Positions 4,283 through 60,842 of a stretch of DNA of 64,000 nt are shown in pieces. Under the pieces are notes generated by a model. It was given only the letters and a program-made list of their open reading frames with translations, ran no database searches and had not been told where the DNA came from. A program made the position numbers and the translations under genes. The stretch lies in contig CM000154.2 in the NCBI GenBank assembly GCA_000004695.1, positions 1,248,001-1,312,000 of the forward strand. Direction: 5' to 3'. The first letter of the stretch is position 1, and each line of letters begins with the position of its first letter. Origin of the DNA: Dictyostelium discoideum (Eukaryota).

Positions 4283-4320
<38 letters not shown>

Positions 4321-4435
4321 CCCCGGGGGGATAATTTTTTAAAATTTTAATTTTCCCCTAAATTTTTGGAAAAAAAAAAAAAAAGTTTTAAATATATTTT
4401 TTTTATAAAAAAAAAAAAATTTTTAAAAAGAGGGG

Positions 4436-5852: not shown

Positions 5853-5890
<38 letters not shown>

Positions 5891-5950
5891 AATCATTATA
5901 ATAATAATAATAACAATAATAATATAAATAATAAAAATGATATGATTTAA
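4723..5950 (+). CDS. cAMP receptor (cAR) family 7TM GPCR in 2 exons.
   Basis: Exon 1 is 4723..5020 with donor GTATGT at 5021. The intron is about 100 nt. Exon 2 is 5121..5950 after acceptor AAAATAG; an alternative acceptor giving an exon start at 5145 is also in frame. Motifs are nearly identical to the Dictyostelium cAR1-4 family as I remember it: [82 protein letters not shown]. The intron sits after TM3, as in cAR genes. The C-tail has an 11-His run. Confidence 0.8.
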
Positions 5951-8710: not shown

Positions 8711-11700
8711 CTAATTATTTTTAGAAATGTCAACAATTTTAGATAGTGTTGCAATTGCCATAACTCTTGAGTCTTTATCAGAATCGGATTGAGATACTTC
8801 AAATAAAAATTGAGCAATATCTTCAATTTCATCAGTGTAGTCTTGATCAATAACTGACTTTGTAATTGTCTCTCTATAGAATACTCTTGATAGTGAATAA
8901 AGTAATGACCTTCTCACATTTGAATCTCTATGTGATTTAAATGACCACAAAAATCTAACCAACTCTTTTGATATCATTCTAGTATCATTTGAATTACCTG
9001 CACATTCAACAATAACACCCAATGTATGAATTAATCTACTTAATAAAAAACTATCATATCCCATCATCATCTCACCACCACTAGCACCACCTTCATAACA
9101 TTGAGTAACTTTATCAAATCCACTTAATAATGGATAAAAATAAATTTTTACAAATTTATGGAATCTATTTGATTTTATTATTGGTCTAGGTGTCTTTCTT
9201 TGTCCCCATTTTCTAACAATACCAATTTGTTTTAAAATTGGTAATTTACTACTTTCACCACTACCACCACCACCATTAATATTAAATATACTATTTTTAG
9301 ACTCTTCATACTGTTGTTGTTGTTGTTCTTGTTGTTGTTGTCTTTGAGTATTTTGTTGATAATTTAAAGCTGATAATTCTTTAGCAGATTCAGAGATTGT
9401 TTCCAAGATTTCAATTCTTTGACCAATGCTAAAATTCTTTTGTTTGAAAGCATCAGTGAGATAAGGAATTACTAATGAAGTTGATTGAGTTGCTAAGGAA
9501 ACTAATGATTCATGACGAATTGATGAGAATGATTCTAAATCATATTCATTTGTTAAATGAATTAATGAATTTGCAAGTTGTACACTTAATTCATCTAAAT
9601 CATCAGGTAATGACCAAACTATATTTGATATTGAATTTAATGCATTCTCCCATGACTCTGCTGTATGTTTTTGACTTTGTAATTCTAATAAACAGTCTCT
9701 TAAATATATCTTTTTTTTAATACCATTTAAATCTGATTCATCATCATCTAAATCATATGGTTTTAAATCATCATCATCCTCATCCTCCTCCTCATCTTCT
9801 GAATTGATTTCTGTAATTTTTGGTCCATTTTGTACTACTTCTTCATCTTCATCTTCATCTTCATCTTCATCATCTTCATCATTCATAATTTTATCAGGAT
9901 CATCATATTTTTTAAATTCTTTTTCTAATAATTTTTTATAATGTTCTTTTGAGCTATTTGATTGTTTTTTTTCATTTCCAATATTTGATGATGCTGTACT
10001 GTTGCTTGTTGTATTGGTGGTGGTAGTGGTATTGGTGGTCGTTAAAGGTTCTTGAAAAATTGGTTTAAAATTTAAAGAAAAACATTGTTGATCAGGTGTA
10101 TCTAGTGAATAGTTGAATTTTAATGGTTCTGATGAATTATTATTATTATTATTATTATTAAATAATTTTGAAAATTGTTCAGCTACAAACATACCACGAT
10201 TATTTATATTTGAAATTGTAAATTTTAAATGTACATCAATACCACTTAATAATAAATGTTTAATATGTTCAATCTTATCTGATGGTAATGGTTTAATAGT
10301 TGATGTTGATGTTGAATTTGCTATTGATAATTTTTCAATAAAAAAAATTATTGATCTTGTAATATAAGAATGTTGCTCATTTGTACAATGTCTAATAAAG
10401 TAAGGATCTTTCCATGATTTTAATAAATTATTTAAAATTAAAAATAATAATGGTTCTTTATCTTCATTTGTACTACCTTCAAATAATAGTATAGAATAAA
10501 GTAAATCTAAATAACAATTTTGACTATTATTATCCATTACTTTTAAAATTAATATTTTATTTATCATTATATGTACAATCATTGAAATTTCATTTCTTCT
10601 TTTAAAAATTTCTAAAAATATTAATTTAAAAACATCTTTATATATATTATAACTAACTAAAAAAGAAGGAAAATAATTATTAGAATATTTTTTTTAAATA
10701 TATATATATTTAAAATGAAAAATAAAAATTACATACATTTTGATAATGATTTTATAATTGTTTCTAAAAATGTATCTAAACAACTACCTTGAATTCCAAT
10801 AATAATATTAGATGATAATTTCTTTTTTAATATTAAACTACTATTCTTATTATCATCTTGAAATAACTCTTTAAAGAAATTATTTACAATAATATCTTTT
10901 TCACCAATTTTAATCATTTTTGAAAATAAAATTGAATATTGGTTTGAAAATAATGTTATTATATTATTTATATTATTATTATCACTATTATTATTGAGGT
11001 TGGTAGAAATACTACTATTTACAGATTGAATACATTGTTGAATGATTTTGGAATAAAATAAATTATTATTGGTAAAGAATTCTAAAATATAATCTTTAAC
11101 TGATGATAATGGTGATTGAATATTCCTAATTCTATTATTTTTATAATAATATTGAATTGATCTACATTTATCTGGTATCAAACAAATTGATTTTATTATT
11201 AAATTCCAAATTGTTTCATGAATTTCTAAATCAATATTATTATTATGTTTTTTAAATTTTCTATTTTGAAATTCAATTATTAACTTTGATAAATTATTAC
11301 TATTATTATCATTTATAAATTTATATAAAATATTAAATAAAAAGTTTAATTTTTGTGAATATAATTCTTCATTATTTTTACTATTATTATTATTACTATT
11401 ACTATTATTATAATTATATTCTGATAATAATGTTGTTAATGTTATAAATGATTCTGATAATAAATTTGGTAAAAAGAAAAAACTTTCAAATAATTGTTTA
11501 TCAAATTCTGTGAATGCATAATACCAATTATCTAAAACATTTTCAATTAATAATTTTAAAATTGATGTTATTGTTACTTGATTATCATTATCATTATTTT
11601 CGCTATTATTATAATTTAAAAATGATTGTTTTAATTCCCTTAATTGTTCAATTATTAATTTTATATCTTTAGTTTGACAAATATTATTAATTAATTCTTT

Positions 11701-24180: not shown

Positions 24181-25456
24181 ATGAAATTTTTGGCTAAATT
24201 AATTTTTTTAATTTTAATAAGTTCATGTGTAAATAGCCAATTGACTCCAAATGAAATCACTTTAATTCAAAATTACCATAATCAATGGAGATCCAATCCT
24301 AATGGTCCAACTCCAGTAACACCAATTTCCGGATTAGTCTACAATGAATCAATTGCAACTGCACTTAATTTAAATCTTAGAAAATGTGACGATTCTTACA
24401 GTAATATGTATCAATACGCTCAAAATAGTGAATGGCAAACTTGGGCCACTCCAATTTCATCTTTTAATTTAACTTCCATTCTTGTAAATATTGGAGAATC
24501 TTCAAAATATTATGATTGGTCAATTGCTGGTTGTAATAATATTTCTTCCTCAAATTGTGAAATTTGGACAAATGTAAGTTATTTTTTTATTTTATTTTTT
24601 TTTTTTTTAGATTTATTTAAAATTATTTAAATATTAAAAATAAAATATTAACATATTAATAATAATTTTAAATAGGCTGTCTGGAATAAAAGTAAAAGTT
24701 TTGGATGCGCCAAATCAATTTGTGATGAAACTATTGTATTATCATGCTCCTATTATCCAGCTGGTGGATTTAAAGGTGTCCTCCCATACAAGCCAACCAG
24801 TATAAACCCTTCAGCTTCTACCACTCCAAAAATGCCAAATTTTTCATCTGGAAGTGTTGATTGGAGTGATTATCAAACACCAGTTAGAGACCAAGGTGAA
24901 GTAAGTTTTTAAAAAAAATCTTTTTTTTTTTAATTTTATTATTTATATAATATTCTAAAATTATTATTATTTTTTTAAAAAAAATAGTGCAAATCATGTT
25001 GGGTTTTTGGTTCTTTGGCAGCATTGGAATCAAGATATTTAATTAAAAATGGTGTATCAGAAAAATCAACATTACACTTATCAGCTCAAAATGCAATGAA
25101 TTGTATTACAAGTGGTTGTGAATCTGGTTGGCCAGCAAATGTATTTGATTATTTTGAATCATCAGGAATTGCATTTGAAAAAGATTATCCATATGATGCA
25201 ATTGGTAGTGATAATTGTACTTCATCTTCTAACAAATTTGAATACTCTGGTTATGATTCAGTTGAAAATACTAAAGACTCTTTAATCCAAGAATTAAAGA
25301 ATGGACCTATCACTATTGCTCTTTACTCTGATACTGCATTCCAAAGTTATGCTGGTGGTATTTATGATTCTGTTGAAGAATATAAAGATGTAAACCACAT
25401 TGTATTATTAGTTGGTTATGATAAACCAACAGATTCTTGGAAAATTAAAAATTCGT

Positions 25457-25821: not shown

Positions 25822-28436
25822 TTAATTTAATTGAAAATAATCTTGATTATCATCTTCATCCTCTAAAGGTAATTTATCAATTAAAGAACGAATGTAATTT
25901 GAATTTTTTGGATCAAGATCCAAAGCGGTATTTAAAGAATCTAAAGCTTTATCGAGTTCGCCCAATTGTTTATAACATTTACCTAAAAGAATGTAGATTG
26001 GAGTTTCTTTTGGTTCAATTTCTTTAAACTCTAATAATTGATCGATAGCATGATGATATTGTTGATTTGCAAAGAGGAAGGCAGCTAATTTGAATTTTGC
26101 AAAGGTATTCTTTGGTTGAATTTCAATTGAACGATATAGCATATCAATACCGTCTTGAATTTTATTTGGATTATGTTGTAGGGTCATACCTAAATAACAA
26201 CATAACACCGAACTGGACTCATTGATTGATAATGCTTTTCTAAAATGATACTCTGCTAAATTGTATTTCTCTTGACGATAATAAATCAATCCAATGCCAT
26301 AGAAGGCATTGTAATGACGTGGGTCACATCTAATGGCCATTCTAAATGCATTCAATGCTAACTCCAACTCGTCGTTCGCTAAATATTCATGACCACATAA
26401 TGTATAGGCATAGGTCATGTCTGGATCCAATTGAATGGCTCTTCTAAACAATTTGATTGCAGCTTCATGATCACGTTGTAAACTGAAACAATTGCCTACC
26501 ACTACCCAAGAGTAGGGTGACAATCTATCGAATTCTGAATATTTATGTGCAATATAACTTAATTCTGCATCTTCATTCATTTGCCATAACAATGTTGAAT
26601 ATAATTCCATACCCTCTAATCTATATGGTTCCATTTGTGATACCTCTTGAAATATTGATCTTGCCTCTTTATAATCAATTAATTCATGATATGCTTTTGC
26701 TACTTTTGTTAATACCCATCCAGTTCTATATTGTTCTTCTGATAATCTTTTAAATGATTCAATTGCTTCTTTACATAAATATCTTTAATATATTAAAATA
26801 AATTTTTTTTAATTATTAGATTAGATACTTTTTATAAAATTATTTTAAAATATATATATACACATACAAACAAAGTAATCTATAAGAATCTGCTAAAATA
26901 AAAAATAATTCTAATAGTTGAGTTTGACCTTTATGTAATTCAATTAAACCTTCATATAGATCACCACCATTGAAATCCAAAATTGAAGATTCATCAAATT
27001 CATAGAAATTTGGTTGAACTGAATTATCAGTAATATTTAATTGATCATCCTCTTCTAATTCTAATTCGTCAATAGATTTATTATGATGATGGAGATGATG
27101 ATGTTGTTGATAATGATGGTTTTCTTCATCATAATCATCATCACTTAATGAAGATGATAAACTTTTTAAACTAAATTCTTCAGTTTTACCAAAATTAACT
27201 TGTTTCTTTGTTTTTGTTAATAAAACCTCTTTATCTGTAATTGATGTTGTTGTTGTCGTTGTTGTTGTTGTTTGTTGTTTAGTTTGTTGTTGTTGTTGTT
27301 GTTGTTTTGATGTTGATGAAGTAAATCCATGGACATCACTACTTGTTGATGTTGTAAATATTGGACTCTTTAAATCAAGTGACATTGGTGTATCAAATTC
27401 ATTACTCATAGATTTCTTTATCATTTGAGATGGTGGTGCGCTCTTTTTATGTTGATGTGGTTGTTGTTTCTGATGATGATGAACACCTGGAGTTGAAGGT
27501 GTGTATGGAGTTTGACTATTGCTAGAAGGGGGATGTTGTGATCCTTTACTGTCAGGTGTATCCATAACCATTGGTATTGGATCTACAACATTTTGAGAAA
27601 ATCTATTTGAAAGTATTGGTGTTATATGAGAAAGTGGTGTTTGTGGTGTAACGAAATATCGATTATTATATTTTTGTAGATTTTGTTGTGATGGTTGTTG
27701 TGGCTGTTGTTGTTGTTGCTGTTGCTGTTGTTGATTAGTTTGTTGAATAGATGCTTTAAAATTAATTGGTGTAATATGTATTGATGAATCATAAAATGAG
27801 GAAGGTGTTAAACCAACTCTATGGTTTGGATGATATGGCGGTTTTATAAAATTATTTGGTTTAATTGTATTCGTTGTTATATTTGTTGTACCTGTAGCTA
27901 CTGTTGATGTGATAGTTTGTTCATTATTTTTATTACTGCTATTATTATTATTAATATTGTTATTATTGTTGTTATTATTATTATTATTATTATTAACTTT
28001 ATTTTGATTTAAGCTATTTGATAAATATTGTTGAAATTGTTGATGTTGTTGATGTTGTTGTTGATTTAAATGATTAATTTGATGAATTAAATTTGTATGG
28101 GAGAATAAGTCAGAGATATCAATTTCGTCGGGACATATATTACATAATTGCTCAAAAGCTACCCATAGGAATGGATAGGTGTAAACTGATTTTTTCAAGT
28201 ATTTAATTGCTTTCTCTTTTTGATTCTTTCTCTTTGATATTAATCCCATTAAATAATAAACTGATCCAATGCTACAAGGAGAATCAAAGCCATATGATAT
28301 ACTATTTATATCAACTATATCATCAAATTCACAAAGTATATCACTATAAATACCATAATATTCATTTTCATTATTGTTGCTATTGCTATTGTTATTGCTA
28401 TCATTATTTTTATTACTATTGTTACATTTATCTTTG

Positions 28437-28511
<75 letters not shown>

Positions 28512-28819
28512 GGTTGAAAATATTTTTCAAAATATATACAACATTTAATAATTGATGATTCAGCTTCTTGAATATTACCAAGATCATAATTTGATAATGC
28601 TAATAGATATAGGTTCTTTATCATTGTAATTTGAGGATGTTGTTGAAGTATTAATAAACATTGATTTATTTTACCCATTTGATAATAGATTTGAGCTATT
28701 TTAAAAAGGTTATCTTCATTGGCTGTTGATGCATATAATCTCTCTGAAAGAAATAATGCATTCTTTATTAATCCACAATGTATTGATTCATCAATACTTT
28801 GAATCATTATTTCTTCCAT
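25822..28819 (-). CDS. anapc3: CDC27/APC3 (anaphase-promoting complex subunit 3), about 970 aa in 2 exons.
   Basis: Exon 1 is 28819..26868 with an ATG at 28819 and donor GTATGTGTATAT. The intron is about 85 nt. Exon 2 is 26782..25822. The phases are consistent (2/1). The junction reads YRLLCL-YLCKEAIESFKRL...QYRTGWVLTKVAKAYHEL, followed by EPYRLEGMELYSTLLW...GNCFSLQRDHEAAIKLFRRAIQLDP...RHYNAFYGIGLIYYRQEKY. This matches CDC27 almost motif for motif. The internal Asn/Gln-rich insert is typical for Dictyostelium. Confidence 0.85.
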
Positions 28820-28985
28820 TTTTTTTTTTTTTTTTTTTTTTCTTAAAAATTTAATTATTTAATAATAAAATAAAAAATAAAAAATAAATATTATTTTATA
28901 TTAATTGTTTGACAATCGTTAAACCTTTTATTTATCTTGAAAAAAAATTAAAAATTAGAAAAAAATTTTTTTGTTGTTTATATTA

Positions 28986-29034
<49 letters not shown>

Positions 29035-29133
29035 GGGGTTATCCTTTTTTTTTTTTTTTTGTATTTAAATTTTAATTTTTAAAACAGTTGAGCATTTTGG
29101 ATAATAAAAAAAAAAAAAAAAAAAAAATTAAAA

Positions 29134-29298
29134 ATGGAAAATAAAGAAGTACAATTTAACAAAGATAAATCGTTATACAGTAATAGTGATATAAGGCAAA
29201 ACAATAAGAATGATGTTGTAATTACAACCAATTTTCATAATAGCAATAATTACGATCGTTCATATAAAAATAATAATAATAATAGTGATAATAGTGAT

Positions 29299-29335
<37 letters not shown>

Positions 29336-29512
29336 GCAATATTAATATAAACTATGTATCTAACAATCCAAATAGTAATAAATATTCAAATAGTAGTAAA
29401 CTGGAAATAAGGAATAATCATAGATCCACTCCCTATGATAGACCAAATAATAATAAATATAATGTAAAAACAACATACACTCAAAACTTTAACCCTACAA
29501 ATAATAATAATG

Positions 29513-29572
<60 letters not shown>

Positions 29573-30219
29573 TTAATATTAATAATGGAAATACACACTA
29601 TAATAGCAAATACTATAACCAAAATAATAATAATGAAAATAAAGAAAATAAAGAAAATAATAATAATAATAATTTTAATAATAAAAAATTAAATGTTGTA
29701 TCATTACCATCAGTTTTAAAGAATCAAAAAGAAACTGATGAAGAAAAGATTAAACAAAGACAAAAGCAAATTGACTTTGGTAAAAATACAATTGGTTATG
29801 ATAATTATATTCAGAGAGTACCAAAAGATAAAAGAGATAGAATACATCCAAGAACACCTGACAAATATCAAAAATGTTCAAGAAGGTCTTGGTTAGGTCA
29901 AATTAAAATTTGGAGAAAAGCATTACACAAATTTGATCCAAATAAAAGTGATAATGATAATGAAGATAGTGATAATGATAATTATATTGATAACGATAAT
30001 GAAGATGATAATCTTAAAAATGAAAAAGATGAAAATATCATAAAAATTAAAAAAGTACATGATAAAGATTATGAAATTGATGAACAATTAACACCACCAC
30101 CACCACCACCACCAAAAATAATAGAAAAGAAAAAGGAAGAAGAAGAAGAAGAAGAAGATTATGAAATTGAATCACTTGAGGAGAATCAAGAATTTTTAAG
30201 ACAATTATTAACAAAATAA
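29134..30219 (+). CDS. Histone mRNA stem-loop binding protein (SLBP) homolog.
   Basis: It is a single exon. The RNA-binding domain [69 protein letters not shown] matches the SLBP RBD, including the HP+TP-K-[YF] and SRRSW signature. Asn-rich low-complexity sequence flanks it. Confidence 0.8.
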
Positions 30220-30381
30220 AATTTAATTATTTATTTTCCAATCTTTTAAAAAAGAAATAACAATATATTTTTCTTTTTTTTTTTTTTTATTTTATTTTAT
30301 TTTTATTTTATTTTCTATTGTTTGTTTCTTATTAACTGATACCAGTGAATATCAATATTCTTTTTTTTTCTTTTTTTTTTT

Positions 30382-32360
<1,979 letters not shown>

Positions 32361-35238: not shown

Positions 35239-36244
35239 TTTTTTTTTTTTATTTTTTTATTTTTAATTTTTTTTTTTGGGAAGGGCCCCCCTTTTTTTTT
35301 TTAAAATTTTATTAAATTTTAATAAAAATTTTTTTTTCCTTTTAAATTTTTTTTTTTGTTTTTTTTTTTTAAAAAATTTTTTTTTTTTTTTTTTTCTTTT
35401 TTTAAAAAAAAGAAAAAAAAAAAAAAAAAAAAAATCATTTTTAATCGATTAATATTTTCATCTTATCGCATTATTGCCTTTTTTTTATATTTCAATAAAA
35501 AAACCAAAGGAGGGGTCAGTTTTTTTTTTTTTTTTTTTATTTTGTTTTTTTTTTTTTTTTTTTTTTTTTTTGATTTTTTTATTTTTTTTTTTATTTTTTA
35601 TTATTTTTTTATTTTTTTTTTTTTATTTTTTTCAAATAGTGTGGTGCCTGTAAAACAAAATAAAATAAGATATTATTATATTTTTAAAAAATATAAACAA
35701 AAATAAAATAAAATTAAAAATAGTATTCTCAAGGTAATTAGGTTAAAATATTACACACATTGTATTATGATGAATTTGTTTTTGTTGTCACATCATATTT
35801 CATTCACTCACTTCCTTTTAATTTGTTAAGTTTTTTTTTTAAAATAATAAAACCCAACCAAAATTTAAATTTTTTGTGCATATTAAGTTGTGTATGTTTT
35901 TTAAAAACATATGGATATATTTGTGTGTGAATATAAATGTGCGTGGTTTGAATGGGAAAATAGAGTGTGTTTGGAAAATTATAAAATATTATCTTTTTTT
36001 TTTTTTTTTTTTTTAAAATTTATTTATTTATTATTTTTTTTTATTTATTTTTATTTTATCATTATATTACATATATAATTTTTTTTTTAATAATAACACA
36101 TAACATAAAATTTAAATTTATTAGTTTTTTTTTATTTTATTTTATTTTATTTTTTTTTTTTTGGTTCTTTTTTTCATTTATTATATTTAAATTATTATTT
36201 TTTATTTATTTTTAATCAATAATATAGAACCTTAATAATAGATA

Positions 36245-59979: not shown

Positions 59980-60842
59980 AAAATTAATTTACACAACAAA
60001 TTCAAACGCGGAAATTATAAAAAATAAAAAAAAATAAAAATAAAAAAAAAAAATAAAAAAAAAAAACTTCTATTTTTAATCAAATAATTTCAAAACAAAT
60101 TTTCTTACAGAATAAAATTTTTAAATTATTTATAACACTTTAGATTTATAACCTTGTGTGTAAGAGTATAACAAATATATGGAAATAGTTTTTTACTATT
60201 TCTATATTTTTTCTTTTTCTTCTTCTTAAAATAAATAAAAAAAAAAAATTAATTAAATATTTAAGTACACTGTTCATCAAATTCAATAAGAGTTCCTTTA
60301 CCCAAATTAATTTCTAACCCGAACTTTAAAAATCTCATATCTTTTAATAATTAAAAATTAAATAAAATAAATAAAATCTATTTTTAGGATTAAAAAAAAA
60401 AAAATTAAAAATAATAAATAAATAAATAAAAAATCTATGAGCAAACCGAAATTATTAAAAAAAAAAAAAAAAAAAAATATTTTTGGAAGTTTTAAAGAAA
60501 AAATATTTGCTCATAATTAATTCTAAGCAAGTATTTTTTCTTTAAAACTTCCTCATTTATTTTTATATTTAATTTTTTTTTTTTTTTTTTAAAAAATAAT
60601 ATTCAATGATGGCTTTTCATGAAAATCATTCGAACCATTTTCAATTGGCTTTCCGATTAAAATATTTTTAAATTTTTTTTTTTTTTTTTGTCAGATGAAG
60701 ATCAAGATCTTGTCAAAAAAAAAAAAAAAAAAAAAGGATTTTTTTAAATTAATAAAGATTTTATATTTTATAACAAATTTTTTTTTTTTTTTTTTTATTC
60801 ATAAAAAATAATAAATCTCTTTTTTCTTTTAAAAAAATAATA

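Follow-up and report, generated by a model that had tools for sequence, protein, structure and literature searches.

A divergent CDC27/APC3 and SLBP gene pair in Dictyostelium discoideum and histone stem-loops in related dictyostelids

[quoted passage not shown] The explanation that best covers the whole locus, and which we hold with considerable confidence, is that of an ordinary divergent pair, consisting of a genuine SLBP gene and a genuine anapc3 gene that share a compact promoter region and are neighbors only incidentally. The pairing accordingly says nothing special about cell-cycle control, and its value lies mainly in the annotation that was confirmed. With regard to SLBP, Dictyostelium appears to possess both parts, cis and trans, of the "metazoan" histone mRNA 3'-end system, namely an SLBP with an intact RNA-binding domain and covarying canonical stem-loops, a result that speaks for the opinion, in print since 2008, that the system is older than animals. 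The anapc3 gene, SLBP, amoebozoan histone stem-loops and the poly-A/T promoter architecture of Dictyostelium are all already known; D. discoideum histone 3'-end processing was reportedly covered by Lopez and Samuelsson in 2008 (RNA 14:1), and Kimmel and Firtel are said to have treated Dictyostelium promoter architecture in 1983.

Results

Identity of the two genes

A sequence-only reading of this DNA had placed the start of CDC27/APC3 at 28819 on the minus strand and that of SLBP at 29134 on the plus strand. Both positions proved exact, being the first ATG of the minus-strand ORF 26840..28819 and the first ATG of the plus-strand ORF 29134..30219, respectively. The CDC27 gene consists of two exons. 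Exon 1 (26868..28819, minus strand) encodes an N-terminal ANAPC3 domain (Pfam ANAPC3, 3.1e-17, residues 16-92) and a long poly-N/poly-Q low-complexity middle, and exon 2 (25822..26782, minus strand) encodes the C-terminal TPR superhelix (Pfam TPR_1, 7.6e-32) and carries the stop codon. They are separated by an intron of 85 nt (26783..26867, minus strand; GTATGT...AAAG, with the splice donor GTATGT at 26867), which is the sole GT..AG intron that gives the 970-aa product called in assembly GCA_054883475.1. Among solved structures, human CDC27 was the best natural match of this product, and the C-terminal TPR block matched human CDC27 (4rg6_A) at 8e-89 (residues 529-789 of 824), while the scores of the same block were about 1e-24 to 4e-26 for CDC23 and about 1e-11 for CDC16, the other TPR subunits of the APC/C. 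Because human CDC27 stood far above CDC23 and CDC16, we assigned the minus-strand gene to APC3 and ruled out that it encodes another TPR subunit of the complex. The identity proposed earlier was thus borne out by the ANAPC3 domain together with a TPR block closest to human CDC27, and there are solid grounds in the protein sequence for regarding the product as the TPR scaffold subunit of the anaphase-promoting complex. The gene appears as DDB_G0288223 among the D. discoideum entries of Strasser et al. (2012, PMC3386910).

The SLBP gene (29134..30219, plus strand) is a single exon encoding 361 aa, and an identical 361-aa product is called in GCA_054883475.1. The protein has a poly-N-rich N-terminal half, an RNA-binding domain at residues 201-269 (29734..29940, plus strand) with the motifs HPRTPDKY (TPNK-type) and SRRSW, and an acidic C-terminal tail with poly-P and poly-E. 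It matched the Pfam family SLBP_RNA_bind (PF15247) at 3.4e-32, with 110.7 bits against a cut-off of 27 and along profile positions 1-70 of 70, and it matched the solved RNA-binding domains of Drosophila SLBP (4tux, 3e-26) and human SLBP (4l8r, 1.4e-23). Five blocks were kept in the alignments: RQKQI-x-x-GKNT, Y-D-x-Y, HP(K/R)TP-x-K, SRRSW and W-x-x-ALH-x-x-DP. In human SLBP, the key positions according to published structures are T171-P172 (TPNK), R180-R181-S-W183, H195, K146, Y151 and Y154. At key positions the window protein has TPDK, SRRSW, ALHKFDP, GKNT and YDNY, and it differs from human SLBP by the substitutions Y144 to F and R137 to Q. Weak similarity of the RNA-binding domain in a profile search had been named beforehand as an outcome that would speak against this gene; the similarity was strong, and the identification of the plus-strand gene as a genuine stem-loop binding protein can be called solid as far as a protein is recognized by its sequence. 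A homologue of SLBP in D. discoideum was in print by 2008 under the DictyBase number DDB0169192 (PMC5054213). In D. dimigraforme, the SLBP-like gene of locus P0039 is a weak match that is split by an intron; it neighbors a reverse-transcriptase ORF, not CDC27, and was set aside as uninformative for synteny.

Histone stem-loops downstream of H2AX

It had also been proposed that stem-loops be looked for downstream of histone genes. The window is free of histone genes, and Rfam scans at the gathering threshold and at E<=1 returned no histone stem-loop, no U7 and no other Rfam family in its 64 kb. We carried out the check on the H2AX gene and its flanks, that is on one histone type and in the genomes of relatives, using D. 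cf. discoideum, D. firmibasis, Tieghemostelium lacteum, Cavenderia fasciculata and Heterostelium album. The outcome was positive, with canonical hairpins 3' of H2AX in the five dictyostelid genomes. RF00032 (Histone3) was the top Rfam match in all five (5/5), on the sense strand and 54-215 nt past the H2AX stop codon, with 35.6 bits in D. cf. discoideum, 33.7 bits in D. firmibasis, 28.3 bits in T. lacteum, and 37.7 bits in both C. fasciculata and H. album (E-values from 6e-8 to 1e-4; three of the five above the gathering score of 34).

The consensus of the H2AX hairpins is AAAGG(U/C)U(U/A)UU-UUU(C/U)-AA(A/U)A(A/G)CC-A(C/U)C, in which the AAA of the 5' flank, the two G-C pairs at the base of the stem, and U1 and U3 of the loop are invariant. 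Pairing is complete in the 30 stem cells, and compensatory change is seen at two of the six pairs, one exchanged from U-A to C-G and the other from U-A to A-U; in a control in which the partner strand was slid, the pairing signal was lost. Conservation of the hairpin with compensatory changes indicates selection on the structure. The distance from stop codon to hairpin is about 200 nt in the two group-4 species, with an A23 or an A26 tract in between, and the D. cf. discoideum gene has two poly(A)-signal-like hexamers (AAUAAA/AUUAAA type) before the hairpin as well, an arrangement compatible with dual processing. Histone mRNAs with both a hairpin and poly(A) signals have been described "from mice to D. 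discoideum", in the words with which PMC8600027 cites Lopez & Samuelsson 2008.

We propose that the RNA-binding domain of SLBP would recognize the hairpin of 6-bp stem and 4-nt loop 3' of dictyostelid histone genes, for which the GGUUUUUUUCAAAACC hairpin is the candidate ligand, and that this recognition would direct or mark the 3' ends of histone mRNAs. Judged by domain and hairpin together, SLBP appears to have its RNA target within the dictyostelid lineage.

Architecture of the spacer

The spacer (28820..29133) is 314 bp long with 90% A+T (A152, T132, G19 and C11 by base count), which agrees with the A/T spacer of about 315 bp described in the sequence-only reading; the A46 run that was also described there was counted as A40 (28992..29031). 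In assembly GCA_054883475.1 (chromosome CM142511.1) the spacer is base-for-base identical except that A29 replaces A40, and therefore the length of this tract is polymorphic or error-prone. The counterpart of the tract in D. citrinum is interrupted by G, T and GTT. On the sense strand of CDC27 the A40 tract is a T40. It is a poly(dA:dT) stretch of variable length, presumed to exclude nucleosomes, and represents a generic Dictyostelium promoter tract, one among the 59 A or T runs of at least 20 bases in the 64-kb window, the longest of which measures 59. The window has a G+C content of 13-34% per 2 kb and its ORFs are rich in poly-Asn and poly-Gln tracts, a combination that is the signature of the Dictyostelium genome. 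A Roco kinase of 1726 aa, which would fit roco4 (DDB_G0288251), is encoded some genes downstream. The Roco and anapc3 gene content, the SLBP gene identical to that of GCA_054883475.1 and the near-identity to D. citrinum suggest that the window belongs to D. discoideum, probably to its chromosome 5, or to a near-identical strain.

In Dictyostelium promoters, a sense-strand poly-T ends about 2 bp before the transcription start, TATAAA(A/T)(A/T) lies 25-30 bp upstream of the start, and upstream poly-A/T tracts disfavor nucleosomes (Chang et al. 2012, PMC3371697). The homopolymer tracts and TATA-like boxes of the spacer fit this published layout. On the CDC27 side (minus strand), an A22 leader directly upstream of the ATG (28820..28841) presumably belongs to the 5'UTR, and the consensus TATA box TATAAAAT (28893..28900, sense strand of CDC27) precedes the ATG by 81 nt and is followed by two T6 tracts that end at 28872, from which we predict a transcription start near 28870. 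On the SLBP side (plus strand), the base-run scan gave a T16 tract on the sense strand (29045..29060), after which the TATA-like element TATTTAAA (29062..29069) lies 72 nt upstream of the ATG and before a T-rich stretch; the transcription start of SLBP is predicted near 29083-29092, and a second A22 leader (29106..29127) just upstream of the ATG is again presumed to be 5'UTR. We infer that the spacer is a promoter region for both directions with a separate core promoter for each gene, in which a TATA-like box and sense-strand oligo(T) would stand near each predicted start and A22 before each ATG, and that the A40 tract and a GC box between the two core promoters probably keep the region nucleosome-free and carry upstream control.

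The GC box, GGCGGGG (29032..29038), has a core that resembles E2F sites and is a candidate for an upstream element common to the two genes. It is the sole occurrence of GGCGGG or CCCGCC in the 64 kb on either strand, and the spacer of D. citrinum keeps GGCGGG between A-rich and T-rich runs, with much of the remaining spacer diverged. This uniqueness and the conservation in D. citrinum speak for a functional box that could act on both genes. E2F sites of the TTTGGCGGGAAA type, and likewise those of the TTTGGCGGG type, have GGCGGG as their core. However, the E2F consensus TTTSSCGC is absent from the spacer, and the box matches neither it nor the plant-type WTTSSCSS; the box has the GGCGGG core only, and its flanks (A40 upstream of the core and TTATCC-T16 after it, in plus-strand reading) stand the wrong way round for the E2F consensus. 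The only match of TTTSSCGC in the window, at 24707, lies outside the spacer. We rejected the box as an E2F site and kept the likeness as a resemblance only. Two further intergenic GC clusters with homopolymer flanks were present in the window (4321 and 35283), and a GC cluster between homopolymer runs may be a general promoter feature. Upstream of SLBP in other dictyostelids we found differing G/C elements, among which TTTTTCCCTCCAAAAAA is identical in H. album and P. violaceum, and upstream of H2AX we found the E2F-consensus sites TTTGCCGC and TTTGGCGC in D. cf. discoideum and H. album. The occurrence of TTTTTCCCTCCAAAAAA, a motif related to the box, in two distant dictyostelids hints at an older S-phase promoter element; the motifs upstream of SLBP and of H2AX are leads, not results.

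Gene order and expression

Head-to-head junctions are common in the window (7 of 23 according to crude ORF-based gene models), with spacers from 205 to 2447 bp. The ATG-to-ATG distance of 314 bp falls inside the <1 kb range used for bidirectional pairs, and it is a short head-to-head spacer, yet the shortest one of the window has 205 bp. Synteny was followed by tblastn, since neighbor entries that are blank in Pfam are unreliable (CDC27 itself is blank in locus L001). In D. citrinum, CDC27 is the divergent neighbor of SLBP, with a spacer of 306 bp. A search of the 6 kb next to SLBP by tblastn was negative for CDC27 in T. lacteum, H. album, C. fasciculata and P. violaceum, where different genes occupy the upstream side. 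The conserved arrangement by which a co-regulated pair may be known was therefore found in D. citrinum alone among the five other dictyostelids. Older than the pairing with CDC27 is the tail-to-tail position of SLBP next to a WD40 gene, an arrangement that T. lacteum has as well.

Expression data came from Strasser et al. (2012, PMC3386910), whose RblA table has a two-fold threshold. Among the entries listed there, anapc3 is repressed by RblA (4.3-fold in growth and 17.6-fold in development) and has a late-G2 maximum. SLBP is absent among the RblA-regulated genes listed, where the histone mRNA processing factors are eriA and COBRA1, and the category "histone biosynthesis" holds, among the entries listed, HAT1, rbbD, COBRA1 and eriA. 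None of the RblA entries listed has a gene ID adjacent to that of anapc3, where we inferred the ID of SLBP to fall, in the range from DDB_G0288225 to DDB_G0288249 (PMC3386910). As a sign that the expression of SLBP is unlinked, its absence among these genes is suggestive, not conclusive. The same source describes Dictyostelium as a cell without G1, in which S-phase and mitotic genes peak together in late G2, and a shared control of anapc3 and SLBP would therefore be coherent.

Discussion

The sequence-only reading had implied that the pairing of two cell-cycle genes is significant. We found no support for this in a layout that is common in the window, in a gene order shared with the sister species only, and in an RblA listing that contains anapc3 without SLBP. 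Most likely, the two genes came to lie side by side by chance, through a recent change of gene order in the D. discoideum/D. citrinum lineage, and do not form a conserved regulatory unit. The pairing looks incidental, and the genes are likely regulated independently.

Two other explanations have to be weighed against this one. According to the first, which we regard as unlikely, the spacer is a truly co-regulated bidirectional cell-cycle promoter, in which E2F/DP controlled by RblA, or some other GC-box factor, binds GGCGGGG, and anapc3 and SLBP are both switched on in late G2, before the back-to-back M and S phases. The likeness of the box to the core of TTTGGCGGGAAA-type E2F sites, its single occurrence in 64 kb and its conservation in D. 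citrinum are what one would expect from such a promoter, as are the RblA repression and late-G2 maximum of anapc3 and the joint peak of S-phase and mitotic genes among the data of PMC3386910; further, the E2F-consensus sites upstream of H2AX in two species suggest that S-phase genes of the dictyostelids probably make use of such sites. Against it, the box fails both TTTSSCGC and WTTSSCSS and has reversed flanks, SLBP is absent among the RblA-repressed genes listed (PMC3386910), the pairing is kept no further than the sister species, and similar homopolymer-flanked GC clusters at 4321 and 35283 suggest that the box may be a generic promoter feature. That GGCGGGG drives both genes in late G2 as a common cell-cycle element working in either orientation, be it a non-canonical E2F/DP site or a site for another GC-box factor, is in our judgment a decidedly doubtful proposition. 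If it were true, a recent juxtaposition would have put SLBP, and hence the handling of histone mRNA, under the mitotic/S-phase RblA program. The small conserved GC box in the spacer is the sole testable lead of the locus.

The second explanation concerns SLBP itself, which might be kept for a role other than at histone 3' ends, e.g. in the translation or stability of a few mRNAs, in which case the hairpins would be vestigial and the mRNAs polyadenylated upstream of them. The distance of about 200 nt between the H2AX stop codon and the hairpin in two group-4 species, the A23/A26 tracts before it and the additional hexamers in D. cf. discoideum would suit such a history, and so would the presence of both kinds of 3' signal on histone mRNAs from mouse to D. 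discoideum (PMC8600027 citing Lopez & Samuelsson 2008) and the absence of SLBP among the late-G2 replication genes listed in Strasser et al. (2012, PMC3386910). However, the hairpin and its flanks are kept, with compensatory changes, across all four dictyostelid groups sampled, the SLBP residues aligned to the RNA-contacting positions of human and fly SLBP are kept as well, and an exonuclease partner, eriA/3'hExo, is found with cell-cycle regulation among the entries of Strasser et al. (2012, PMC3386910). We consider this explanation very improbable, and we retain that of an incidental pair with a genuine SLBP.

Comparison with known systems

For the CDC27/APC3 gene, the known systems are human CDC27 (PDB 4ui9, 5g04 and 4rg6) and yeast Cdc27 (8a3t). 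The window protein resembles them in its N-terminal ANAPC3 domain, its low-complexity middle and its C-terminal TPR region, with about 260 residues aligned to human CDC27, and the only notable difference is the expanded poly-N/poly-Q middle region, which is typical of Dictyostelium. The spacer is like other Dictyostelium promoters (Chang et al. 2012, PMC3371697) in that it has sense-strand oligo(T), TATA near the start, long upstream poly(dA:dT) and an A-rich leader. Compared with classic co-regulated bidirectional pairs such as histone H2A-H2B, the CDC27-SLBP pair has neither a conserved pairing nor expression evidence that links the two genes.

With metazoan SLBP/HBP (human, PDB 4l8r/4qoz; Drosophila, PDB 4tux/4tv0), the window SLBP shares an RNA-binding domain of about 70 residues that aligns end to end and contains the common motifs KQIxxGKNT, YxxY, HP(K/R)TPxK, SRRSW and WxxALHxxDP, and like fly SLBP it has an acidic Ser/Asp/Asn-rich stretch after this domain. 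In contrast to the metazoan proteins, it has TPDK in place of TPNK, and its N-terminal half is poly-Asn low complexity, in which neither the metazoan translation-activation region nor a cell-cycle degron was recognized from the ORF translation and in which Pfam gave no other domain. The dictyostelid hairpin is built as in metazoans, with an AAA flank, a 6-bp stem that begins with GG, a UUUC loop and an ACC 3' flank, whereas its stem is A/U-rich (GGUUUU) and its distance from the stop codon is unusually large in the group-4 species. Another amoebozoan, Physarum polycephalum, likewise has SLBP with a conserved RNA-binding domain (SLBP1/SLBP2, PMC8600027); Physarum has two SLBP genes, whereas the dictyostelids sampled have one clear copy each, plus a weak extra match in D. 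dimigraforme. Both kinds of 3' signal are present on the histone transcripts of Physarum and D. discoideum in the account of PMC8600027 and its citation of Lopez & Samuelsson 2008.

Histone stem-loop position downstream of H2AX

In two group-4 Dictyostelium species, the histone stem-loop (the Rfam RF00032 match 3' of H2AX) was located about 200-215 nt downstream of the stop codon (D. cf. discoideum, L008 3684-3729; D. firmibasis, L010 3661-3702), while the distance was 54-105 nt in groups 1-3 (T. lacteum, L009 3560-3605; C. fasciculata, L011 3577-3621; H. album, L012 3541-3585). A tract of A23 or A26 precedes the hairpin in the two group-4 species, and two poly(A)-signal-like hexamers are also present 5' of the hairpin in D. 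cf. discoideum. This arrangement suggests alternative 3' ends, formed either by poly(A) or by the hairpin.

Promoter motifs upstream of SLBP and H2AX

In H. album (L004 ~5885-5903) and P. violaceum (L006 ~1031-1052), one identical copy of TTTTTCCCTCCAAAAAA per locus precedes the SLBP start codon by ~85-110 bp. The reverse complement of this sequence, TTTGGAGGGAA, precedes H2AX of C. fasciculata by 260 bp (L011 ~2738-2750). TTTTTCCCTCCAAAAAA/TTTGGAGGGAA might represent an S-phase promoter motif that has been conserved. The H2AX upstream regions of D. cf. discoideum (TTTGCCGC, L008 ~2519-2526) and H. album (TTTGGCGC, L012 ~2765-2772) contain sites matching the E2F-type consensus TTTSSCGC, and D. 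firmibasis H2AX has GCGCGCGC at the corresponding place.

SLBP gene neighbourhood

SLBP of D. discoideum is followed by a gap of 162 bp (window 30220-30381) and then, tail-to-tail, by a WD40-repeat gene on the minus strand (30382-32360). This WD40-repeat gene is the convergent neighbour of SLBP in T. lacteum as well (L003 6871-8352). The SLBP-WD40 adjacency is older than the SLBP-CDC27 adjacency. We also observed that SLBP (L005) and H2AX (L011) of C. fasciculata are separated by only ~11 kb on one scaffold (GL883029.1, near 2.888 and 2.900 Mb), a closeness that is probably a coincidence. The SLBP-like gene of D. dimigraforme (L007 6001-7571) is intron-split and encodes 202 aa with a weak match, the alignment covers only the C-terminal half of the RNA-binding domain, and a reverse-transcriptase ORF is located nearby; this gene is perhaps a copy that is decaying or was mis-modelled.

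Repeats and homopolymer runs

The poly-Asn tracts of CDC27, SLBP and the WD40 gene are encoded by long triplet repeats, (AAT)n/(ATT)n, at window 28437-28510, 29290-29345, 29505-29575 and 31950-32310. In other frames, these repeats yield long poly-Ile and poly-Tyr shadow ORFs. Weak matches to MIR6024 on both strands of an A/T-rich palindrome at 60485-60552 (27 and 26 bits) fell far under the gathering score of 72, and were almost certainly due to chance.

The sole difference in the CDC27-SLBP spacer between the two assemblies was the length of one run, A40 (window 28992-29031) versus A29 (L001 of GCA_054883475.1, ~9859-9887), and its D. citrinum counterpart is broken by G, T and GTT. Two other intergenic GC clusters within long homopolymer runs were present in the window, T34-CCCCGGGGGG at 4287-4330 and GGGAAGGGCCCCCC followed by T10 at 35270-35300, both similar in arrangement to A40-GGCGGGG-T16 of the spacer.
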